A stretch of 53,424 nt of DNA from contig JABSSB010000002.1 of the NCBI GenBank assembly GCA_013214715.1, forward strand, positions 1 to 53,424, read 5' to 3'. This stretch comes from Paracoccaceae bacterium (lineage in GTDB: Bacteria; Pseudomonadota; Alphaproteobacteria; Rhodobacterales; Rhodobacteraceae). Shown here in pieces: positions 9,715 through 53,424 of this stretch; position 1 is the first letter of the stretch; every line of letters starts with the position of its first letter. The notes beneath the pieces were generated by a model, which saw only the letters and a program-made list of their open reading frames with translations, did not search any database and was not told where the DNA came from. The position numbers and the translations under genes were made by a program.

Positions 9715-10497
9715 ATGACATTGGCACGGATCGAAGATCGCGGGGATCACATCGCGATCATCAACAGGAACGCCGCCAAACGCGGTGCCTTGTCGGTTGA
9801 ATATTACGAGGCGGTGATGGCCGGGTTCAAAGCCGCGCAGGAGCGGCGGATCCGCGCGGTTCTGCTCACATCCGAAGGCGGGTTTTTCTGCGCGGGCGGC
9901 GATTTGACCGTGCTGATCGAACGCCACAAACTGCCCGAGGATGAGCGGCATCAAAAGATCGACGCGCTGCATGACATGATCCGTGCCATCCGCGCCAGCC
10001 CGGTGCCGGTGGTCTGCGCCATTGAAGGCGGTGCGGCAGGCGCGGGGCTGTCGATTGCGCTGGCCTGCGATCTGATCGTCGCCGCCGAAGATGCCAAATT
10101 CACCGCGGCTTATGTTAAAGCGGGTTTGGTGCCAGATGGCGGTCTGACCTCGGCCCTTGCGCGCGCGGTGCCGCGGCAGATGGCGATGGAGATGTGTCTG
10201 CTGGGCCGGTCCTTGCCGGTCACGCGCTTTGCCGAGGCCGGGGTGGTGACGGCGTTGACAGCACCCGGCGCGGCCGATCAGGCGGCAGCTGACCTGGTTG
10301 CGCGCCTGACGGCTGGTCCGCGTGATGCACAGGGCGTGATCCGGACTTTGGTGGCCGACGCCTATGAGCTGTCCGAGGAAGATCAACTGGCCGCCGAACA
10401 GATCGGCATGGCCCGGGCGCAAGGTGGGGCCGAGGCGGCGGAAGGCATTGCCGCGTTTCTTGAAAAACGTCCGCCCCGGTTTGGCGATCTGCCATGA
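9715..10497 (+). CDS. enoyl-CoA hydratase/isomerase (crotonase) family protein
   Basis: ORF 9697..10497 trimmed to ATG 9715 (GGGAGGGG upstream). Crotonase segments: FFCAGGDL, AIEGGAAGAGLSIALACDL, AYVKAGLVPDGG. Confidence 0.85.
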   Translation: MTLARIEDRGDHIAIINRNAAKRGALSVEYYEAVMAGFKAAQERRIRAVLLTSEGGFFCAGGDLTVLIERHKLPEDERHQKIDALHDMIRAIRASPVPVVCAIEGGAAGAGLSIALACDLIVAAEDAKFTAAYVKAGLVPDGGLTSALARAVPRQMAMEMCLLGRSLPVTRFAEAGVVTALTAPGAADQAAADLVARLTAGPRDAQGVIRTLVADAYELSEEDQLAAEQIGMARAQGGAEAAEGIAAFLEKRPPRFGDLP

Positions 10498-11987
10498 CCG
10501 AGCGGGTCGAGCATCATCTGGCCCGGCAGGTTGCCGCGCAGCCCAAGGCGCCCGCGATCAGCGACACGACCGGGGCGGCATGGACATGGTCGGATCTGGC
10601 TGCGGCTGCGGCGGATATGGCGCTCTTGCTGCGGGGCGAAGGGGTTCAACCCGGCGACCGGGTTATGCTGGTGACGGAAAACTGCGCGGCCTCGGTCGCG
10701 GCGATGCTGGGCGGCTGGCAGATGGGCGCGGTGATGGTGCCCGTGAACGCCCGCCAAACCGCACCTGAAATCGACCGGGTCGTGGCCCATGCCGAACCGG
10801 CGGCGGTTCTGTTTGCCGACCATGTCGCTGGCGACGCCGCTGCCCATGCCGACCGGTTTCAGGCCTGGACGGTCAGCGGCGGCTTTGGTCGCTTGCGCAT
10901 GGCCTGCCCGCATGACAGCGCACCCGATGCCGTGCAGGATCTGGCCGTTATCCTTTACACCACTGGTACAACCGGCACGCCAAAAGGCGTGATGCTGACC
11001 CATGCCAACCTGCTGTTCGGAGGTCGCGCGAGTTGCGAGTTCCGGTCGATGAGTTCTGCAGATTGGGTCTATGGCGTCTTGCCGATCACGCATGTCTTTG
11101 GGCTCGCCTCGATCATGGTCGGGGGGATGATCGGTGGCGCGCGCCTGTCGATGGAGGCGCGGTTTTCCCCGGCCAAACTCTATGAGGCGCTGACAAGCGG
11201 TGTGACCCTGTTTTCCGGGGTGCCACAGATGCATGCGCAGCTGATGCATTACGTCCGTGAGCGTGGCCATGACCGGCTGGGCAGTGACAGCCTGCGCTAT
11301 GTTTCCTCGGGCGCGGCGCCGCTGGACCCGGAATGGAAGCGTCAGGCCGAGGCGTTTTACGGCGTGGCGATCCAGAACGGCTATGGCATGACGGAAACCA
11401 CAGCGGGGGTGGCTGTGTCACGCAATCAGATCGGCAGCCTCGACATTTCCTGTGGGCCGCTGATCGACGGCTGTGAGCTGCGCATCGATGAAACCGTGCC
11501 CGGTGGCGGTGATGGTGCCGGAGAGGTCGTGACCCGCGGCCCCAACATCATGCGCGGCTATTATCGCAACCCCGAGGCCACCGCGCAGGTTCTGGATTCT
11601 GAAGGCTGGCTGCGCACGGGCGATCTGGGCCGGGTGGATGCGGCAGGGCATCTGCATATTCTGGGCCGCTCGAAAGAGCTGATCATTCATGGCGGTTTCA
11701 ATGTTTATCCGCCCGAGGTCGAAGCCGCGCTGAACGAACATCCTCAGGTGATCCAATGCGCCGTCATAGGCCGCCCGCGCGATGGGGATGAGGAGGTTCT
11801 GGCCTTTGTCATGGCCGCCGCCGCCGATATGCCCGATGTGGCCGACCTGCGCAGCTTTGTAGCCGCGCGTCTGGCGGGATATAAACGACCGTCAAAAATT
11901 ATTGTGGCCACTGCTCTTCCAGCTGCGCCAACTGGTAAAATTTTGAAACACAAACTGATAGACCAGTTTGCCGATTGGCTGAGCTGA
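10494..11987 (+). CDS. AMP-dependent acyl-CoA synthetase/ligase
   Basis: 497 aa. AMP-binding motifs ILYTTGTTGTPKGVMLTH, YGMTETT and GDLG...GRSKELII. ATGA overlap with the crotonase gene. Confidence 0.9.
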   Translation: MTERVEHHLARQVAAQPKAPAISDTTGAAWTWSDLAAAAADMALLLRGEGVQPGDRVMLVTENCAASVAAMLGGWQMGAVMVPVNARQTAPEIDRVVAHAEPAAVLFADHVAGDAAAHADRFQAWTVSGGFGRLRMACPHDSAPDAVQDLAVILYTTGTTGTPKGVMLTHANLLFGGRASCEFRSMSSADWVYGVLPITHVFGLASIMVGGMIGGARLSMEARFSPAKLYEALTSGVTLFSGVPQMHAQLMHYVRERGHDRLGSDSLRYVSSGAAPLDPEWKRQAEAFYGVAIQNGYGMTETTAGVAVSRNQIGSLDISCGPLIDGCELRIDETVPGGGDGAGEVVTRGPNIMRGYYRNPEATAQVLDSEGWLRTGDLGRVDAAGHLHILGRSKELIIHGGFNVYPPEVEAALNEHPQVIQCAVIGRPRDGDEEVLAFVMAAAADMPDVADLRSFVAARLAGYKRPSKIIVATALPAAPTGKILKHKLIDQFADWLS

Positions 11988-45092: not shown

Positions 45093-45425
45093 TTAGGGGT
45101 CATCCACTGTGTCGTGGTCATGGAAGAAAAGGTGATCAATCATAATGTTGAGCACGCTGTGCACACAGGCATCCGCCATCGTGTAAAACATCTGTTTGCC
45201 GCGCCGTTCGGATCTGAGAATCCGGGCCGAGCGCAGCAGGCGCAGGTGATGGCTGGTCAAAGAGGGCGACACGCCGACATGCTCGGCTATGTCACCGGCC
45301 GACCGTTCCACTTCCATGCAGGCGATAACAATCGACAAGCGTGTGGGATCGGCCAACAGGCCGAATGTTTCGGCCAGTTCCATTGTCTGATCTCGATATA
45401 GATCACGATTCTCCATACTAAACAC
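45093..45425 (-). CDS. ArsR/SmtB-family metal-sensing repressor
   Basis: 110 aa (GTG 45425 or ATG 45416). [11 protein letters not shown], w[32 protein letters not shown], and a His/Asp/Cys-rich C-terminus [22 protein letters not shown]. Confidence 0.88.
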
Positions 45426-45504
45426 TTAAACGGTTGTTCAATTGTTGTCACTGCTGATCTTCTGCGGCAGAGCAGCGCGGCGGAAGGCCCAATTTTCCAC
45501 TTGC

Positions 45505-45519
45505 GTTATGTTATAACAT
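45505..45519. promoter_or_regulatory. candidate Zur box 1 (GTTATGTTATAACAT)
   Basis: Contains the perfect 12-bp palindrome ATGTTATAACAT (45508-45519), 36 nt upstream of the COG0523 TTG start. It sits in the divergent region shared with the SmtB-like gene and is nearly identical to the site upstream of zur. Confidence 0.7.
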
Positions 45520-45554: not shown

Positions 45555-46775
45555 TTGACGCAGCATGACACACGCCTTCCCGTCACGGTCTTGTCGGGTT
45601 TTCTTGGGGCCGGAAAAACCACCTTGTTGAACCGGGTTCTGAACAATCGCGAAGGCCGCCGTGTCGCCGTGATCGTGAATGACATGTCCGAGGTGAATAT
45701 CGACGCCGATCTGGTGCGAGCCGACACCGAACTAAGCCGGACCGATGAGACCCTTGTGGAAATGTCCAATGGCTGCATTTGCTGTACCCTGCGGGATGAT
45801 CTTCTGGACGAGGTGCGGCGCCTCGCGGCGGAAGGGCGCTTTGATTACCTGCTGATTGAATCCACCGGAATTTCAGAGCCATTGCCCGTCGCTGCCACGT
45901 TTGATTTCCGCGATGAATATGGTGACAGCCTTTCGGATGTATCGCGCCTTGACACGATGGTGACCGTGGTTGACGCGGTAAATCTGCTGAAAGATTATTC
46001 CAGCCATGATTTCCTGCGTGACCGGGGCGAGGTCATGGGCGACGAAGATGATCGCACGCTTGTGCATTTGCTGACCGATCAGATTGAATTCGCTGATGTG
46101 GTCATTCTGAACAAGGTCGATGACGCAACCCCCGATCAAGTGGAAGCGGCCCGCAAGATTATTCGAAGCCTGAACGCCGACACAAAGATCATCGAAACAA
46201 ATCATTCGGATGTGGCGGCGGATGAAATCCTGGATACGGGTCTTTTTGACTTTGAAAAGGCGCATGAGCATCCGATGTGGGCGAAAGAGCTTTATGGCTT
46301 TGCCGATCACGTGCCGGAAACCGAAGAATATGGCGTGACCAGCTATGTCTATCGCGCCCGCCGCCCGTTTGAGCCCGAGAAGATCCTAAAGGTGCTGAAT
46401 GGTGATCTGCCAGGCGTGATCCGGGCCAAGGGCCATTTCTGGATCGCCACCCGCCCGGATTGGGTGGCCGAGTTTTCGCTGGCCGGGGCGCTGTCATCGG
46501 TTAAACCATTGGGCACATGGTGGGCATCGGTTCCGGTTGAACGCTGGCCCGATCACGATAGCGCAAAGGAATACATGGCAGCCCATTGGCAGGAACCTTG
46601 GGGCGATCGGCGGCAAGAAATCGTGTTCATCGGCGCGGGTATCGACTGGCCGGCGCTGACGGCCCGCCTCGATGCCTGTCTTTTGCCCGAGCATTTGGCC
46701 CCCGACCCGGAGTCGCTGCCGCAGGATCTGCCGGACCCGTTCCCGCTTTGGCGCCGGGCCGAGGCGGCGGCATGA
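45555..46775 (+). CDS. COG0523 (CobW/ZigA/YeiR-like) metallochaperone GTPase, paralog 1
   Basis: ORF 45501..46775 trimmed to TTG 45555 (AAGGAG 7 nt upstream). Walker [13 protein letters not shown], metal motif [14 protein letters not shown], and a CobW C-terminal domain. Confidence 0.9.
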
Positions 46776-47425
46776 CGGTGCTGCACCCCCTGAACGCTGC
46801 GCCGCCCAAAGGTGTGCGTTTGGCCGAAGCCTCCGACGCGTTGGAGGCCATTCACCACGCAGATTGTGCCGCTGCTATCTGGCAGCGCGCGTTTCCCGAC
46901 GGGTTCGCAGAGTGGATCGACGGATTGTCACCCGAGCAGTTGCCCTCCGCACGGGTAGTGTTGACACCAGATCGCGTGGCCGATGCTGTGACAATGCTTT
47001 GCGATGGGGCCGACACGCCGGCATCTGCGCATCGGGAGTTTCTTATCAGCGATGCCGCTGATCTTGCGACGCATTTTGCGACCATCATGGACGCGCCTTA
47101 CCTGCGGATGCGGCTCGACAAGGTCACGACAAATGCGTGCCGCAAATTCCATATGGACGCGGTGGTGGCCCGGCTGGTGTGCACCTATCGCGGCTCGGGC
47201 ACGCAATATGGCACTTCAGTCGCTGGTGGCGATCCCGAGGTGATTGCGCGCGTGGCTACGGGGTCTCCGATTGTGATGCGTGGCTCGCTTTGGCCCGAAA
47301 CGCCCAAATCAGGTCTGCTGCACCGCTCGCCTCCGATTGAGGGCAGCGGAGAGACGAGGTTGCTGTTTGTCCTGGATCCTGTATCCGACCCGGAGCAGAC
47401 GGCTGATTTGCATCACTTGCACTGA
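46772..47425 (+). CDS. DUF1826 family protein
   Basis: ORF 46586..47425 trimmed to ATG 46772 (ATGA overlap with the COG0523 stop). At 217 aa the product resembles DUF1826 proteins (…[21 protein letters not shown]…), which I remember as frequent COG0523 neighbours. Confidence 0.7.
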
Positions 47426-47520
47426 GCCGCCAGGCCCGGAGTCCGCTCTGGGCAAACGGGCGCACTGCTGTATAGAGCGGTGCGGCCGGTTTGGGCTGTC
47501 TGTGCGGCTAGGATATCGCG

Positions 47521-48627
47521 ATGGTTGAAAAACGACTTCCACTCACCGTGTTGACCGGGTTCCTTGGTGCTGGGAAATCGACTCTGTTGAACAAGGTCCT
47601 GGCCCAGCCGGGTGGCGACAAGCTGGCCTTGATCGTGAACGAATTCGGAGAGATTGGCCTCGATCATGACCTGATCGAAGCCAGCAGCGACGAGGTCGTG
47701 TTGATGGCGTCGGGGTGTTTGTGCTGTTCGATCCGGGGTGATCTGGCGCAAACGGTGTCCAGGCTTTTGACCCGCCGCGCCCGCGGGCAGCTGGAGTTTG
47801 ATCGCATCGTCATCGAAACAACAGGTCTGGCGGACCCGGTCCCGATCCAGCAGACGGTTCTGGCGGACCCGCTGCTGGCACGGGCTGTTTATCTGGACGG
47901 GATCGTCACGGTGGTCGATACGGTGACGGGTGCCCGGACTTTGGATGCTCAGTTCGAAGCCGTGTCTCAGGTGGCGACCGCAGATTTGCTGTTGCTGTCC
48001 AAAACCGACCGGGCGGACCCCGCGTCCATCACCGCATTGACGCAAAGGCTGCGCGGTTTGAACGCCACGGCGGATGTGCGAACAACAGCTGACGCCGCAG
48101 CCAATCCGTCGATGATGTGGCAACGCTCCGCGATGCGGCGGGATGTATCACGAAATCAGGCCATTGACTGGCTGACGCCTTCGCAAACCGCGCCGGACCC
48201 TCTGGCCAATCTGTCCGGGCTTGCGGGGGTCGCACTGCCCGATCGGACCGCGACCTTGGCGCATGATGGTCGCATTAGCTCAGCTTCGATCAGTTTGGAC
48301 GAACCGCTTGATGATTCTGTCTTTGATAATTGGCTGGACACGCTGATCACCCTGCGCGGATCTCAGATACTGAGGATCAAGGGAATCGTGTTCCTCGAAG
48401 GGATCGACCATCCATTTGTCTTTCACGGTGTGCAGCATGTGTTTGACCCTCCGGTCCCGTTGAAAGACTGGCCTGACGGGGACACATGCTCTCGCATCGT
48501 GGTCATCGCCCGAGATGTGCCCGAACAGGAGCTTTACCGCAGCTTTGATATGTTGCGCAAAAACGCTGCGCCAAAGCCGCGGGCGTTTCCCGATTGGCAA
48601 CCGGTTGCGCCAAAGCCATCATCTTAA
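47521..48627 (+). CDS. COG0523 (CobW/YciC-like) metallochaperone GTPase, paralog 2
   Basis: 368 aa. GFLGAGKSTLLN, GCLCCS, ETTGLADP, and a CobW_C domain (…ILRIKGIVFLEG…). Confidence 0.9.
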   Translation: MVEKRLPLTVLTGFLGAGKSTLLNKVLAQPGGDKLALIVNEFGEIGLDHDLIEASSDEVVLMASGCLCCSIRGDLAQTVSRLLTRRARGQLEFDRIVIETTGLADPVPIQQTVLADPLLARAVYLDGIVTVVDTVTGARTLDAQFEAVSQVATADLLLLSKTDRADPASITALTQRLRGLNATADVRTTADAAANPSMMWQRSAMRRDVSRNQAIDWLTPSQTAPDPLANLSGLAGVALPDRTATLAHDGRISSASISLDEPLDDSVFDNWLDTLITLRGSQILRIKGIVFLEGIDHPFVFHGVQHVFDPPVPLKDWPDGDTCSRIVVIARDVPEQELYRSFDMLRKNAAPKPRAFPDWQPVAPKPSS

Positions 48628-48646: not shown

Positions 48647-48661
48647 GTTATGCTATAACAT
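48647..48661. promoter_or_regulatory. candidate Zur box 2 (GTTATGCTATAACAT)
   Basis: Differs from box 1 at one position. Lies 32 nt upstream of the zur ATG. Confidence 0.7.
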
Positions 48662-48692: not shown

Positions 48693-49097
48693 ATGACCCG
48701 TGGTGAACAGATGCAGGCCGACATTCTTTCTGTGCTGATGGCGCAGGACGGGGTGATGTCGGCCTATGATATTATGGATGCTCTCAAGGGATCTTATCCC
48801 AAGATCGCGCCGCCCACCGTGTATCGTGCGCTGTCGGCACTGACCAAGGCCGGACAGGTTCACAGGCTGGAATCGCGCAACGGTTACATGGCCTGTCAGC
48901 ATGATCATGCTGAGGAAACGGCCGTGCTGTCGATTTGCGATGATTGCGGCGCCGTTGAGGAAACCGCCTCGAACAAAATCCTCGATGATCTTGCCTATGT
49001 CGCGAAGAAATCTGGATTCGTGCCGTCCCGCCATGTGATCGAGATGATCGGCACATGCGGCGACTGCGCCAGCGCCGAGCGGGACGCATCGTCATGA
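48693..49097 (+). CDS. zur: zinc uptake regulator (Fur family)
   Basis: 134 aa. wHTH …TVYRALSALTKAGQVHRLE…, two CxxC pairs (CDDC, CGDC), directly upstream of znuCBA. Confidence 0.88.
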   Translation: MTRGEQMQADILSVLMAQDGVMSAYDIMDALKGSYPKIAPPTVYRALSALTKAGQVHRLESRNGYMACQHDHAEETAVLSICDDCGAVEETASNKILDDLAYVAKKSGFVPSRHVIEMIGTCGDCASAERDASS

Positions 49098-49225
49098 GCG
49101 AGGGGCGCACAGCGAAAAGGCTGCTGCTGATCGGCGCGGGTCCCCGCGTGGCAGGAGCCATGGTGATCATCGTCTTTCTCTGGCTTGGCTATTTATGGGC
49201 CACAGCGACGCCTGGATCGCTATGA
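49094..49225 (+). CDS. possible 43-aa single-TM peptide between zur and znuC
   Basis: Own translation: MSEGRTAKRLLLIGAGPRVAGAMVIIVFLWLGYLWATATPGSL. Its ATG overlaps the zur stop (ATGA) and its TGA overlaps the znuC ATG at 49222 (ATGA). No family recognised. Confidence 0.35.
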   Translation: MSEGRTAKRLLLIGAGPRVAGAMVIIVFLWLGYLWATATPGSL

Positions 49226-49965
49226 CAACCGCACTTTCCTTTGAGAACCTGACCCTTGGCTATGATCGCTTGCCAGCGGTGCAACGGCTTGAGACCGAAA
49301 TCCCCCAAGGCAGCCTGACAGCGGTTGTCGGCCCGAACGGGGCGGGCAAATCAACCTTGTTAAAAGGTGTGATCGGAACGCTGACACCATTGGAAGGCAA
49401 GATCGGCTTTGGGGAATTCTGTCGTGACGATATCGCGTATTTGCCTCAGCAATCTGATATTGATCGGGGCTTTCCTCTGACCGTTGTGGATCTGGTCAGC
49501 ATGGGCCTGTGGCGTCAGATTGGGCCTTTTGGTCGCGTGCGCCGCGCCCAACGTGCGCGTGTGGCGGATGCGATTGCCGCCGTCGGGCTGACCGGTTTCG
49601 AAAAACGCTCCATCGGGTCGCTGTCGGGAGGGCAGATGCAGCGGGTGTTGTTCGCCCGGTTGTTGCTGCAGGACGCGCAGCTTGTCTTGCTGGACGAACC
49701 GTTCAACGCGGTCGATACGCGCACAATGGCAGACCTGCTTGAGATCATCGCGCGCTGGCATCGTGAAGGCCGCACGGTTCTGGCCGTGCTTCATGATTTC
49801 GACTCGGTGCGCACGCATTTCCCCCGCACATTGATGCTGGCCCGCGAAATGGTGGCGCATGGCGCGACCGAAGATGTTCTGACCTCGGAAAACCAGTTCC
49901 GCGCGCGCCAGATGTGCGAAGCCTGTGCCAGCACGCCCCATGTCTGCGGGAAGGATGCCGCATGA
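49222..49965 (+). CDS. znuC: zinc ABC transporter ATP-binding protein
   Basis: ORF 49195..49965; the start is probably MTTALSFENLTLGY at 49222. Walker A GPNGAGKST, signature LSGGQMQR, and LLDEPFNAVD. Confidence 0.9.
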   Translation: MTTALSFENLTLGYDRLPAVQRLETEIPQGSLTAVVGPNGAGKSTLLKGVIGTLTPLEGKIGFGEFCRDDIAYLPQQSDIDRGFPLTVVDLVSMGLWRQIGPFGRVRRAQRARVADAIAAVGLTGFEKRSIGSLSGGQMQRVLFARLLLQDAQLVLLDEPFNAVDTRTMADLLEIIARWHREGRTVLAVLHDFDSVRTHFPRTLMLAREMVAHGATEDVLTSENQFRARQMCEACASTPHVCGKDAA

Positions 49966-50831
49966 TCTGGGATGCGATCATTGCGCCATTTGCGGAATTT
50001 GGCTTCATGCGGCGCGCCTTGCTGGGCTGTGTCGCGATTTCGCTCGGTGCAACGCCGGTCGGCGTGTTCTTGATGCTGCGGCGGATGAGCCTGACAGGCG
50101 ATGCGATGGCTCATGCGATCCTGCCGGGGGCGGCGATTGGCTATCTGGTGTCGGGCCTGTCGCTGGGCGCGATGACCATTGGCGGGCTGGTCGCAGGTAT
50201 GGCTGTGGCGCTGGCATCCGGTTTTGTCACGCGGGCGACGGCCTTGCGGGAAGATGCAAGCCTTGCGGCCTTTTACCTGATCTCGCTTGCGCTGGGCGTG
50301 CTGATCGTGTCGACGCGCGGCAGCAATGTTGATCTGATGCATGTGCTGTTCGGGACGGTTCTGGCGCTGGATAATGCGGCGCTGATCCTGCTTTGCTCGA
50401 TCGCGAGCCTGTCGATCCTGGGTGTTGCCATTTTGTTCCGGCCCTTGGTGATGGAATGCGCGGATCCACAATTTCTGCGGTCTGTCAGCGGGTTGAGCGC
50501 GGTGACGCATTTCACTTTCCTCAGCCTGTGCGTGCTGAACCTTGTGGGCGGGTTTCACGCCCTGGGCACGTTGATGGCCGTGGGTATCATGATTTTGCCG
50601 GCCGCCGGCGCGCGGTTTTTCGCCAGCTCTATCGCCGGGCTGATAGGGGTCGCGGTTTTGATCGCGATTGGCTCGAGCGTGACAGGTTTGTTGCTGTCTT
50701 ACCATTTCAGCCTGCCATCCGGCCCGGCCATCATCCTCGTCGCGGGCATCGCCTATGTTCTGGCCCTTCTGTTTGGGCCGGTGGGTGGGTTGGTGACGCA
50801 GGCCATTCCGAAATCCCAAGTTAATCCGTGA
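49962..50831 (+). CDS. znuB: zinc ABC transporter permease
   Basis: Trimmed to MIWDAIIAPFAEFGFMRRALLG (ATGA overlap with znuC). ABC-3 family polytopic permease. Confidence 0.9.
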   Translation: MIWDAIIAPFAEFGFMRRALLGCVAISLGATPVGVFLMLRRMSLTGDAMAHAILPGAAIGYLVSGLSLGAMTIGGLVAGMAVALASGFVTRATALREDASLAAFYLISLALGVLIVSTRGSNVDLMHVLFGTVLALDNAALILLCSIASLSILGVAILFRPLVMECADPQFLRSVSGLSAVTHFTFLSLCVLNLVGGFHALGTLMAVGIMILPAAGARFFASSIAGLIGVAVLIAIGSSVTGLLLSYHFSLPSGPAIILVAGIAYVLALLFGPVGGLVTQAIPKSQVNP

Positions 50832-50842
50832 AGGACGACATT

Positions 50843-52090
50843 ATGACCCAACGCAGAACGCTTTTGAAATCCGCCACGGCCGTGCTGGCCCTGGCTGTGG
50901 CCAGCCCGGCCTTTGCGCAATCGACCGACGCGACCCGCGTCGTGGCAAGTTTTTCGATCCTGGGTGACATGGTCGAACGCATTGGAGGCGAGCATGTGGC
51001 CGTGACGACTTTGGTCGGACGCAATGGCGATGCGCATGTCTACCAACCGACACCGGCCGCCGCCAAGAACGTGAGCGAGGCCGACATTCTGATCGTGAAC
51101 GGTCTGGAATTCGAAGGCTGGCTGGACCGTCTGGCCGAAGCAGCGTCGTTTGATGGCGAAATGATTGTCGCGACCAGCGGGATCGACCCGATCCCCTACG
51201 GTGAAGACGATGATCATGATGATCATGATGATCATGATGATCATGGCCATGACGATCATGCAGATCATGATGATCACGACCATGAGCATGAAGACCATGC
51301 GGACAAGGATCACGATCACGCGCATGATGATCACGGTGACGAAGACCACGCCGATGCGGGCCACGATGATGACCATGATCATGGCCACGAAGATCATGCG
51401 GATGCCGAGCACGACCATGATCACGGTCATGAGGATCACGCAGACGCCAAGCACGACCACGGTCACGGTCATGGTCATGAGGATCACGCAGACGCCGAGG
51501 CGGACCATGATCACGATCATGAAGAGCATGCGCATGACGATCACCACGGTCATGACCACGGCGCATTTGATCCGCACGCTTGGCAAAGCCTGACCTTGGC
51601 GGTGACCTATGTCGACAACATCACCGCCGCACTTGCGCAGGCCGACCCGGCCAATGCGGGCGACTTCTATGCAAACCGTGCAACTTATGTTGCTGAAATC
51701 GAAGCATTGGATGCCGAGATCAAAGCGATGATGGCGGCTTTGCCCGAAGACAAGCGCACGGTTGTAACCTCGCATGATGCGTTCCAGTATTTCGGTCGCG
51801 ATTACGGGCTTACATTCCTTGCGCCGCAGGGGTTGAGCACGGAGTCCGAAGCCTCTGCTAAGGATGTTGCGGCATTGATCGAGCAGATGCGCGAAGAAGG
51901 TATCTCTGCCGCTTTTGTCGAGAACATCACCGATCCGCGTTTGCTGACGCAAATCGCGAATGAAAGTGGTGCGACCATTGGCGGATCGCTCTTTCCGGGT
52001 GCCTTGTCAGAAGAGGACGGTCCGGCGCCGACCTATCTGGACATGATGCGCCATAATGCAATGACGATCGCGGGGGCTTTGGGCTCTTGA
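50843..52090 (+). CDS. znuA: zinc ABC transporter substrate-binding protein with a greatly expanded His/Asp loop
   Basis: Trimmed to MTQRRTLLKSATAVLALAVASPAFA. Cluster A-I SBP segments: GDAHVYQPTP, VNGLEFEGWL, FDPHAW, VTSHDAFQYF. Total length 415 aa. Confidence 0.92.
   Translation: MTQRRTLLKSATAVLALAVASPAFAQSTDATRVVASFSILGDMVERIGGEHVAVTTLVGRNGDAHVYQPTPAAAKNVSEADILIVNGLEFEGWLDRLAEAASFDGEMIVATSGIDPIPYGEDDDHDDHDDHDDHGHDDHADHDDHDHEHEDHADKDHDHAHDDHGDEDHADAGHDDDHDHGHEDHADAEHDHDHGHEDHADAKHDHGHGHGHEDHADAEADHDHDHEEHAHDDHHGHDHGAFDPHAWQSLTLAVTYVDNITAALAQADPANAGDFYANRATYVAEIEALDAEIKAMMAALPEDKRTVVTSHDAFQYFGRDYGLTFLAPQGLSTESEASAKDVAALIEQMREEGISAAFVENITDPRLLTQIANESGATIGGSLFPGALSEEDGPAPTYLDMMRHNAMTIAGALGS
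51203..51562 (+). repeat. His/Asp-coding low-complexity repeat tract inside znuA
   Basis: (GATGATCAT)x4 is perfect at 51209-51244. The 24-mer GGTCATGAGGATCACGCAGACGCC occurs exactly at 51425-51448 and again at 51473-51496. Three GHEDHADA(E/K)-type modules are present. Confidence 0.9.
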
Positions 52091-52099
52091 TCCAACAAT

Positions 52100-52123
52100 C
52101 GCCCTGCCGCCATTGGCAGGGCG
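52100..52123 (+). terminator. possible hairpin terminator after znuA
   Basis: CGCCCTGCC-GCCATT-GGCAGGGCG, 10 nt after the znuA stop. No T-run follows. Confidence 0.4.
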
Positions 52124-52176
52124 ACCGATCCGCAGATGGGCTTGACGCGATCTGTCAGAGTGGCAGGGTGCAGGAC

Positions 52177-53424
52177 ATGTTTGAAAGGCTCACCCTATTG
52201 GCCCGATCAAATCCGCTGAGACTTCTGTGCCTGATGTGGTTTGGGTTGGTCTGGGCGCTATCGCCGGTTCAGGCCCAGCAACCCGAGGTGGTGAACTGGG
52301 ATGCCCTGACGATTTCAGCCTCGGATGCGGAAACGACGCAGAGCCTGATTCCGAGGTTGCAGGATCGGTATGATCCGGATCTGCTAAAGGAATTTGACCT
52401 CTCAGTCTGGGAAGATCTGCCCTTGGCCGAGCCTTTGCTTGGCCGCGATGTGGCGATTGATGGCTATGTTCTGCCGCTGGTGTCCGAAGGCGCGCGCGTG
52501 ACCGAATTCCTGCTGGTTCCTTGGATAGGTGCCTGCATTCATGCGCCGACGCCAGCGCCGAACCAGATGGTGCACGTGTCTTATCCGGATGGGCTGAGGC
52601 TGGACAAACCCTATGACCCGATGCGCATCCGTGGCGTTTTGCAGAGCCAGCCGGATTACCATCCCTTGTTTCTGGTTGATGGCAGCCGTGCTGTGCCAGC
52701 GGCCTATGTTTTGGAGAATGCAGCAGTCTTTGGAACGCCCGGGGTGATTTCGGCTGCCTCGGCAGCTGATGTGCCGCTTTTGGCTCGTGCTCAGATCTGG
52801 GTGAATGATCTGTTTCTCACAGCAATGTCCGGCCTGTCCGGGGACGGTCTGTCCAATGCGTTGCTTTTCGCATTACTGGTGTCGTTTGGCTATGGGGCGC
52901 TGCATACATTCGGGCCGGGCCATGGGAAATCGGTTGTCGTTTCCTATTTCGTCGGGACAGGCGGCAGCCTTGGGCGCGGGGTGACAATGGGCATTCGTAT
53001 TGCCGTGATCCATGTGCTGTCGGCTGTGATCGTTGTCTGGCTACTGGATTTCGCGGTGCGGCAGGCCACTGGCAGCGCGCCTTCGGATTACCGGGCCATC
53101 CGTCTCGGAAGCTATGCGCTGATCTGTGCAATCGGATCCGTCATGCTGTTTCAGGCTGTGCAGGCTCTGCTGTCATATCGCCGGGCGTCCGACCATGATC
53201 ATAACCATCACCATGACCATCACCATGACCATCACCATGATCATCACCACAGCGGTTGCGCAGCCTGCGAGGCGGCCGCCTCCACGAAAGGCGGCGGATG
53301 GATCGCTCTGTCTGTCGGGATCGTGCCTTGCACAGGGGCCCTGCTGGTCATGCTGTTCGGGCTCGCCAATGATCTGATCTGGCCTGCGATTCTCATGGTG
53401 GCCTTTATTTCACTGGGCATGGCC
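52177..53424 (+). CDS. DUF3299-like periplasmic domain fused to a NicO/RcnA (COG2215)-type metal permease (3' end beyond the window)
   Basis: Own codon-by-codon translation from ATG 52177: 416 codons with no stop. Signal peptide …LVWALSPVQAQQ. DUF3299-like VAIDGYVLPL…EFLLVPWIGACIHAPTPAPNQMVHV. Permease motifs GALHTFGPGHGK and GIVPCTGAL. Loop DHDHNHHHDHHHDHHHDHHHSGCAAC. Confidence 0.8.
   Translation, partial: MFERLTLLARSNPLRLLCLMWFGLVWALSPVQAQQPEVVNWDALTISASDAETTQSLIPRLQDRYDPDLLKEFDLSVWEDLPLAEPLLGRDVAIDGYVLPLVSEGARVTEFLLVPWIGACIHAPTPAPNQMVHVSYPDGLRLDKPYDPMRIRGVLQSQPDYHPLFLVDGSRAVPAAYVLENAAVFGTPGVISAASAADVPLLARAQIWVNDLFLTAMSGLSGDGLSNALLFALLVSFGYGALHTFGPGHGKSVVVSYFVGTGGSLGRGVTMGIRIAVIHVLSAVIVVWLLDFAVRQATGSAPSDYRAIRLGSYALICAIGSVMLFQAVQALLSYRRASDHDHNHHHDHHHDHHHDHHHSGCAACEAAASTKGGGWIALSVGIVPCTGALLVMLFGLANDLIWPAILMVAFISLGMA
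53206..53250 (+). repeat. 12-nt His-codon microsatellite in the permease loop
   Basis: CATCACCATGAC at 53206-53217 and 53218-53229, CATCACCATGAT at 53230-53241, then CATCACCAC. Encodes (HHHD)3HHH. Confidence 0.9.

Follow-up and report, generated by a model that had tools for sequence, protein, structure and literature searches.

The ZevAB system is needed by Haemophilus influenzae under severe zinc restriction, and its mutants are reported to be defective under such restriction. The DUF3299 domain is that of ZrgE in the Vibrio zrgABCDE system, which is Zur-regulated and up-regulated 76-fold under zinc limitation, and of PA4066 in the Zur-regulated PA4063-66 operon of Pseudomonas aeruginosa, for which a structure is available (4HSP). 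ZrgE and PA4066 are free periplasmic proteins of about 150 amino acids (aa), encoded beside a MacB-type ATP-binding cassette (ABC) transporter and a DUF2796 zinc-binding protein. In Bordetella, a NicO-DUF1007 pair adjoins a metal ABC importer. Here we describe an open-ended open reading frame (ORF) at the end of a 53,424-nucleotide (nt) stretch of Paracoccaceae DNA (contig JABSSB010000002.1, hereafter the window), in which a DUF3299 domain and a NicO/RcnA-type permease form one polypeptide encoded directly downstream of zur-znuCBA. The fused protein is predicted to be an inner-membrane divalent-metal transporter of the NicO/RcnA/ZevB type, most likely for Zn2+, and under zinc limitation it may well provide an auxiliary route of Zn2+ uptake in which a tethered domain hands metal to the permease. 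The locus had been singled out by an original prediction made from the sequence alone, whose statement that DUF3299 proteins are normally free-standing beside MacB-like ABC genes, as in PA4063-66, agrees with the ZrgE and PA4066 literature.

Architecture of the fused protein

The ORF runs from 52177 to 53424 on the + strand and leaves the window after 416 codons. Its translation contained no stop, as the original prediction had claimed, and every sequence motif quoted there was present in it; the other two forward frames contained 16 and 14 stops, and the chance of 416 open codons at the local base composition was ~1.7e-6. The fused DUF3299-NicO gene at the end of the window is real. Its missing 3′ end could be read from a 5-kb marine metagenome contig (L081), which was 98.3% identical to window positions 50907-53424. 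The L081 allele encodes a protein of 488 aa (P0001) that adds a sixth transmembrane (TM) helix and a short tail, and the sole essential difference from the window protein was a His loop 8 residues shorter in P0001; the window allele is predicted to encode about 496 aa at full length. In L081, the fused gene is followed by a convergent solute-binding-protein gene, an L36 gene, a tRNA, and a formylglutamate amidohydrolase gene, and this gene order makes the fused gene the last gene of the zinc cluster.

Residue numbers refer to the ORF product unless P0001 numbering is stated. Sequence reading, a hydropathy peak at residues 13-31, and a helix in the structural model indicated a Sec-type signal peptide over residues 1-33 (52177..52275, + strand) with a cleavage site between VQA and Q; the signal peptide had been foreseen, with an extent of residues 1-34 that we revised. 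Profile searches placed both halves above the curated Pfam cut-offs. The DUF3299 domain (PF11736; 52297..52668, + strand, with core strands to residue 184 at 52728) was matched over residues 41-164 (E = 1.4e-26, 93.7 bits against a cut-off of 22), and the permease (PF03824; 52867..53424, + strand, with TM1-TM5 inside the window) over residues 231-357 (E = 1.1e-13, 51.7 bits against a cut-off of 27.7). Because the window end cuts the ORF, the NicO match was confined to the first half of the profile.

The DUF3299 domain is similar to PA4066/4HSP by sequence (E = 2.6e-15) and is an oligonucleotide/oligosaccharide-binding (OB)-like beta-barrel. In an AlphaFold2 model built from 31 homologues, which was of moderate confidence (predicted local distance difference test (pLDDT) 74, predicted template-modelling score (pTM) 0.58), the barrel lay at residues 91-184. 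A Foldseek search of the model against the PDB returned PA4066 (4HSP) as the sole significant match (E = 3.2e-6, target-normalised template-modelling score 0.64), the weaker matches being OB-folds, and found no solved structure for the permease half. The original assignment of DUF3299 to about residues 92-184 was therefore right as to family and covered the barrel core of the model; its start was too late, with the Pfam match beginning at residue 41. The GACIHAP motif (52528..52548, + strand) is a candidate periplasmic metal site, in which C120 and H122 were invariant in 31 fused homologues and conserved in PA4066; the longer motif GACIHxPxPxxNQ was conserved between the fused protein and PA4066. 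Between the barrel and TM1, the model contained a connecting helix at residues 201-220 (ARAQIWVNDLFLTAMSGL at 52783..52836, + strand), and a comparable pre-TM helix was found in unfused permease relatives.

Six TM helices were identified by hydropathy and in the AlphaFold2 model (TM1 ~224-246, TM2 275-293, TM3 307-332, and TM4 368-386 in P0001 numbering; TM4 is 376-394 in the window protein). The loops carried 12 Lys and Arg residues inside versus 2 outside. Only with the N-terminal domain in the periplasm and the His-rich loop in the cytoplasm do the loop charges obey the positive-inside rule, and we therefore adopted this topology. Hydropathy, loop charges, the model, and the PF03824 match thus agree with the periplasmic N-terminal domain and polytopic NicO permease with a His-rich loop that were first proposed.

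The permease contains an HTFGPGHGK motif at the cytoplasmic end of TM1 (52903..52929, + strand), which includes the invariant H243 and H249 and is common to unfused DUF1007-partnered permeases. The His/Asp-rich cytoplasmic loop, DHDHNHHHDHHHDHHHDHHH (53191..53250, + strand), is encoded by 4.9 copies of a 12-nt repeat, GACCATCACCAT. As the loop of the L081 allele (98% identical) is 8 residues shorter, loop length is polymorphic, probably through repeat slippage. The loop is followed by a CAAC motif and by PCTGAL in TM4 (53257..53343, + strand; CAAC 53257-53268, PCTGAL 53326-53343), with invariant Cys. Residues invariant in the 31 fused homologues were, in P0001 numbering, C120 and H122 in the periplasmic part and H243, H249, H279, D291, C353, C377, and N390 in the permease. 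The least confident points inside folded regions of the model were ACIH at 119-122, where pLDDT fell below 50, and PGH at 247-249; these coincide with two invariant Cys/His candidate metal motifs.

Distribution of the fusion and its unfused relatives

We examined the best 120 of 1027 relatives from a protein search for domain content, and all 120 carried PF11736 and PF03824 in one protein of about 485-600 aa. A genome scan using one genome per species yielded 246 stretches encoding a relative, of which the best 80 loci (L001-L080) were analysed. Both domains were adjacent on one strand in 79 of these 80, and 76 of the 79 had a complete ORF of at least 450 aa. The fused loci belonged to Rhodobacterales and other Alphaproteobacteria, Cyanobacteria (Leptolyngbya-like), Planctomycetota, Verrucomicrobiota, and Desulfobacterota. 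The original prediction had contrasted the fusion with the normally separate proteins; its occurrence in all of the best relatives and nearly all of the best loci across five phyla shows that it is not an oddity of this locus. In their source records, the fused relatives are named 'DUF3299 domain-containing protein', 'HoxN/HupN/NixA family nickel/cobalt transporter', or 'nickel/cobalt exporter', and searches of the literature with domain, family, and system names found no paper describing a DUF3299-NicO fusion. The fused architecture is common, being widespread in marine bacteria, and annotated, yet uncharacterised; the original caveat that it might prove common and already characterised held for the first part and failed for the second.

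Several loci departed from the standard form. Fused ORFs of Planctomycetota carried two tandem DUF3299 domains before the permease and reached about 730-800 aa (L026, L029, L032, L034, L036, and L041). Extra free-standing DUF3299-like matches were seen in the fused loci L004 (6818-7111), L014 (15080-15367), and L018 (5673-5948). L059, a second copy in Ruegeria arenilitoris, was considered as a natural unfused copy and rejected; it contains the permease part only (9836-10877) at a contig end, with scrambled sequence before it, and looks like a truncated remnant. In L064 (10001-11964), the two halves lie in different frames. L059 and L064 are probably pseudogenes or assembly errors.

The permease half was compared with 1.84 billion cluster representatives, giving 4180 relatives at E <= 1e-3. 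About 20-27 fused representatives ranked at the top, followed by a large unfused set of 300-350 aa with 35-50% identity. A DUF1007 gene lay directly upstream of the permease gene and overlapped it in five of the six unfused relatives that were looked up, and the contigs of the sixth were too short to show the upstream gene. The earlier statement that COG2215 permeases are partnered with a separate DUF1007 protein thus holds for the nearest unfused permeases. On the basis of published annotation, we take ZevAB to be such a DUF1007 and NicO pair. The unfused permeases shared YGALHxxGPGHGK, the His-rich loop, and VPCTGA with the fused protein, and had an N-terminal signal-like helix, a periplasmic linker, and a pre-TM helix of their own.

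In three unfused operons, the genes were arranged in the order ZnuA-DUF1007-NicO (L083 3347-6005; L087 1561-4025; L088 3109-5697). Neither znuB nor znuC was found within 5 kb in L083, so that the ZnuA-family protein may serve the secondary permease and not an ABC transporter. Strong Zur palindromes preceded the unfused operons: ATGTTATTATATAACAT at -61, together with a second palindrome, in L083/L084, TGTTATGAGATAACA at -35 in L087, and TAATGTTATAACATTA at -41 in L088. A tblastn search with four DUF1007 proteins found no DUF1007 gene in the window or in L001-L080; therefore, DUF3299 occupies the DUF1007 position in the fused loci. Sequence similarity between DUF1007 and DUF3299 was not detectable. 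To judge from these sequences, the fused family looks like a ZevB-type permease with DUF3299 in its N-terminal periplasmic segment replacing the separate DUF1007 partner, and the window has what appears to be the same layout as ZnuA-DUF1007-NicO, with the fused DUF3299 in the DUF1007 place. In L082, a PRA-CH (HisI-type) gene lies directly downstream of the DUF1007-NicO pair (1750-2142); HisI paralogues are known members of zinc-limitation regulons.

Zinc cluster and gene neighbourhoods

As first noted, the fused gene lies directly downstream of zur-znuCBA. ORF and profile scans placed zur at 48693-49097, znuC at 49195-49965, znuB at 49914-50831, and znuA at 50828-52090, all on the + strand. 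The head of this operon carries the Zur box nearest upstream of the fused gene, GTTATGCTATAACAT (48647..48661, + strand), and a second Zur box, GTTATGTTATAACAT (45505..45519, + strand), lies before zigA. The 15-mer GTTATGYTATAACAT occurred twice in the window without mismatch (45505 and 48647), when 0.31 occurrences would be expected even with 3 mismatches allowed. Both boxes closely match the Paracoccus denitrificans Zur motif validated by gel-shift (electrophoretic mobility shift assay), GTAATGTAATAACAT and GTAACGATATAACAT. An exact GTTAT-N1-5-ATAAC scan found only the 45505 and 48647 sites in the 53-kb window, and four sites in 1.39 Mb of related loci, two of which head zur-znuCBA-fused operons.

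Synteny of the window type was found in L001, L008, L010, and L013, in which zur and/or znuCBA, sometimes with COG0523, precede the fused gene and share its strand. The operon head carried a Zur box in L008, L010, and L013, that is, wherever the head is on the contig. Across the 80 loci, scans for the 15-mer (<=2 mismatches) and for exact GTTAT-N1-5-ATAAC found Zur palindromes before fused genes only at these three operon heads, and inspection of cyanobacterial upstream regions by eye gave no clear operator. In a rough neighbour-joining tree, the znu-linked members formed one alphaproteobacterial subclade nested among members of other context, and znu linkage among alphaproteobacteria was confined to that single subclade. 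The linkage to zinc genes (COG0523, ZnuA) recurs independently in cyanobacteria: the fused gene was immediately followed by a COG0523 gene in five loci and immediately preceded by a ZnuA-family gene in L061, and several loci had znu genes within 10 kb. In two loci from related cyanobacterial metagenome-assembled genomes (L068 1139-4666; L071 186-2596 and 2848-3646), the order was an ArsR/SmtB-type regulator (- strand), a prokaryotic metallothionein (+ strand; PF02069, E = 1.6e-25), the fused gene, and COG0523, so that the transporter gene lies between a module for zinc excess and a gene for zinc limitation.

The commonest neighbours were amidohydrolase genes (PF01979), of which one to four were found in 40 of the 80 loci, usually directly upstream and on the same strand. 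An OprB-family porin gene was present in 17 of the 80 and an AraC-type regulator in 8. A census of the immediate upstream gene (n = 63) gave Amidohydro_1 in 17, OprB in 5, ZnuA in 3, and CobW in 2. The amidohydrolases resemble the Caulobacter periplasmic Xaa-Pro dipeptidase or PRK09061-type metallohydrolases and have N-terminal signal peptides, nearly all of the Sec type and one or two Tat-like; because of the Sec-type signal peptides, these enzymes must gain their metal in the periplasm. COG0523 genes were present in four amidohydrolase-type loci. Arrays of two to four paralogous signal-peptide amidohydrolase genes lay directly upstream in L003 (3701-8039), L004 (3437-8580), L030 (6977-9711), L048 (6410-9488), and others, often with an OprB-type porin gene and an AraC regulator beside them.

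Further features were observed in the window. A zinc-limitation module upstream of zur (45555..48627, + strand) comprises a ZigA-like COG0523 GTPase, a DUF1826 protein, and a second COG0523 GTPase. The ZigA-like GTPase scored 593 bits versus the ZigA cut-off of 600; the listed TTG start at 45501 overlaps the Zur box, and TTG 45555, preceded by GGAG, is likelier. The DUF1826 gene between the two COG0523 GTPase genes (46586-47425, + strand; E = 3e-51) overlaps the end of zigA by ~190 nt as listed, and its true start is probably later. The znuA product belongs to the ZnuA/AztC type and has a very long His/Asp loop. This unusually long His/Asp-rich insertion of ~120 residues (51209-51525) derives from imperfect tandem repeats (periods of 9, 24, 33, 42, 48, and 90 nt) and caused tblastn to split ZnuA around it. 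Divergent from zigA is an ArsR/SmtB-family ORF (45093-45425, - strand) of 110 aa with a His/Asp-rich C-terminus, and the Zur box at 45505 sits in the intergenic region that it shares with zigA. The only Rfam match in the window, 5_ureB_sRNA (2212-2499, + strand; 123.6 bits), probably marks conserved urease coding sequence and thereby a cluster for urease, a nickel enzyme, at the far window end; it was rejected as bearing on the fused gene because it is too far away.

The L36 gene in L081 was considered as a Zur-regulated, zinc-independent paralogue and rejected, since it is the single-Cys C- form and has no good Zur box nearby; many alphaproteobacteria normally have this form as their only copy. 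A palindrome weakly resembling a Zur box, GTTATCTGACAACAT (L081 3834-3848, - strand), with 3 mismatches lies ~30-45 nt upstream of the convergent solute-binding-protein gene, and at least one such 3-mismatch match occurred in 12 of 200 shuffles.

Proposed function and comparison with described systems

We propose that cleavage of the signal peptide would leave an OB-like DUF3299 domain with an invariant Cys-x-His in the periplasm, tethered by a helix to a six-helix permease with invariant His, Cys, and Asp residues and a His-rich loop facing the cytoplasm. The tethered domain would take up metal in the periplasm, possibly from ZnuA, and present it to the permease pore for Zn2+ uptake; it is plausible that capture and translocation are thus combined in one polypeptide. 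We infer the metal and the direction of transport from gene context. Uptake is preferred for three reasons: in several independent lineages, the unfused permeases most similar to this one are encoded downstream of Zur boxes together with ZnuA-family proteins; the window repeats that layout of ZnuA, partner, and NicO; and published work connects both ZevAB and ZrgE with zinc limitation.

Several observations weigh against zinc uptake under Zur control. The 15-mer and exact palindrome scans found no Zur box in the 86-nt gap between znuA and the ORF; therefore, Zur could control the fused gene only if transcription from the zur promoter reads through. The znuA stop is closely followed by a strong hairpin (52100..52123, + strand), whose stem is G+C-rich and 10 bp long and which lacks a T tail; it has similar counterparts in the L008 and L013 gaps and could be an attenuator or mRNA-stabilising element. 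It is followed by a CTTGAC hexamer 31 nt before the ATG (52141..52146, + strand), with a similar hexamer at a comparable distance in all five syntenic gaps, which may be the -35 element of a promoter for the fused gene. This conserved -35-like hexamer suggests an independent promoter. The original prediction of a Zur-controlled locus fits the operon head at 48647; the fused gene itself may come under Zur control if it is co-transcribed with znuA. In L002, the fused gene adjoins znuABC and is convergent with it, and hence is not co-transcribed with znuABC. In L068 and L071, the zinc-excess module smtB-smtA precedes the fused gene; the amidohydrolase linkage is not well explained by an importer; and no Zur box was found within 10 kb of the alphaproteobacterial amidohydrolase-type loci. 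In addition, zinc binding was not evident in the crystal structure of PA4066, and the PA4063-66 system has since been recast as an exporter. The sole transporter family matched in NCBIfam, far below its cut-off, was RcnA, which is an exporter; with 53.4 bits for the window ORF and 37.7 bits for P0001 against a cut-off of 195, neither protein is a member of this subfamily (NF007454).

The chief competing explanation is export for metallation, in which the permease would move Zn (or Co/Ni/Mn) to the periplasm and DUF3299 would load apo-proteins; the clients would be the Sec-exported amidohydrolases in most genomes and here possibly ZnuA or other periplasmic zinc proteins. Half of the loci carry such enzymes, the alphaproteobacterial ones without a Zur box, and OprB-type porin genes, the position after smtB-smtA, and the precedent of RcnA as an exporter with the periplasmic partner RcnB point the same way. 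However, the nearest unfused permeases lie in Zur-boxed operons with ZnuA-family proteins, which serve uptake; ZevAB mutants are reported to have a defect under zinc restriction; moving zinc out while ZnuABC brings it in would be a futile cycle; and COG0523 and znu linkage recurs in the subclade of the window and in cyanobacteria. We consider export unlikely, while giving it serious weight. The uptake and export contexts pull in opposite ways, and a neutral wording covers both: DUF3299 couples a metal permease to periplasmic metalloproteins. More generally, and with still less assurance, we tentatively suggest that DUF3299 is a general periplasmic hand-off domain, either feeding Sec-exported amidohydrolases outward or, like DUF1007, providing a dock for ZnuA in non-ABC zinc import.

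The hexamer and the missing Zur box in the gap would also suit a zinc-independent transporter with its own promoter, carrying another metal or a metal chelate (Ni for urease, or Co), with DUF3299 as a gate or ligand-binding lid. NicO relatives include Ni/Co permeases, urease genes lie within the window, and the operon of PA4066, itself without evident zinc binding, has been linked to pyochelin-cobalt. However, the urease genes are ~50 kb distant, the linkage to ZnuA, Zur, COG0523, and metallothionein extends over three phyla, and the invariant Cys/His ligands fit zinc as well as nickel or cobalt, so that we judge this explanation improbable. Least probable is an RcnA-like efflux pump for Ni/Co (or Zn) excess with a coincidental adjacency to znuA. 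The best NCBIfam match, the six-TM plan with a His-rich cytoplasmic loop as in RcnA, the source name 'nickel/cobalt exporter', and the ArsR-family ORF at 45093-45425 are in its favour, but the score of 53 bits is set against a cut-off of 195, and no RcnR- or RcnB-type gene stood out in the neighbourhoods that were scanned, in which no search was aimed at them. Moreover, zur-znuCBA or COG0523 synteny is conserved in five or more genomes, zinc-limitation genes recur in cyanobacteria, and the most similar unfused relatives are preceded by Zur boxes, through which transcription is repressed when zinc is plentiful.

If true, the outward-feed version would represent a dedicated periplasmic metallation machine and the docking version a binding-protein-dependent, non-ABC zinc importer; either would give the orphan ZrgE/PA4066 proteins a function. 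The fusion of DUF3299 to a ZevB-type permease is Rosetta-stone evidence, which suggests that DUF3299 acts at the periplasmic face of a metal transporter. The analysis delimits a family of several hundred proteins for which the database name, 'HoxN/NixA nickel/cobalt transporter', is probably incorrect. It also shows repeated occurrence of NicO-type permeases next to ZnuA downstream of Zur boxes, in some cases with no ZnuBC genes close by. The link of the fused family to exported amidohydrolases is newly exposed and unexplained, and raises the question of the metal source of Sec-exported metalloenzymes in metal-poor seawater. Current views are not overturned; the result is a tractable, testable lead on DUF3299 function and not a surprise.

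Finally, we compared the fused protein with known systems. It shares the clan-level Pfam family match (NicO) with the NiCoT permeases HoxN/NixA. NiCoT permeases have eight TM helices and an HX4DH signature in TM2, whereas the fused protein has six TM helices and an HTFGPGH motif; because helix count and signature differ, the name 'HoxN/HupN/NixA family' is probably a misnomer. RcnA has comparable HxxxPGHxK and PC motifs. RcnA/RcnB of Escherichia coli, an Ni-Co efflux system, resembles the fused protein in its NicO family, six TM helices, central His-rich loop, and periplasmic accessory protein; unlike the DUF3299 domain, RcnB is a separate protein of another family, and the context in the window is zinc limitation and not Ni/Co excess. 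YcnJ of Bacillus subtilis, a CopC-CopD-YtkA fusion, likewise has an extracytoplasmic metal-binding beta-barrel N-terminal to a metal permease, for which hand-off to the pore has been proposed, but its domains are unrelated (CopC, CopD), its metal is copper, and its host is Gram-positive, making it an analogy only. ZrgE and PA4066 share with the window protein the domain itself, the GACIHxPxPxxNQ motif, the periplasmic location, and the link to Zur, whereas the window domain is fused to a secondary permease. As no MacB-type or DUF2796 gene was found between 34 kb and the window end, and thus no MacB-type transporter, the fused gene is not a ZrgABCDE/PA4063-66 system. The closest likeness is to the ZevAB or DUF1007 and NicO arrangement, with 35-50% identity between the permease half and DUF1007-partnered permeases, a ZnuA-family gene as the immediate upstream neighbour, and a link to Zur boxes or zinc limitation in both. 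In the window, the partner is instead DUF3299, covalently fused, and the fused gene lacks a dedicated Zur box. With a fused DUF3299 domain where a separate DUF1007 partner would stand, the fused protein appears to be a variant of the ZevAB-type system and not a member of it.

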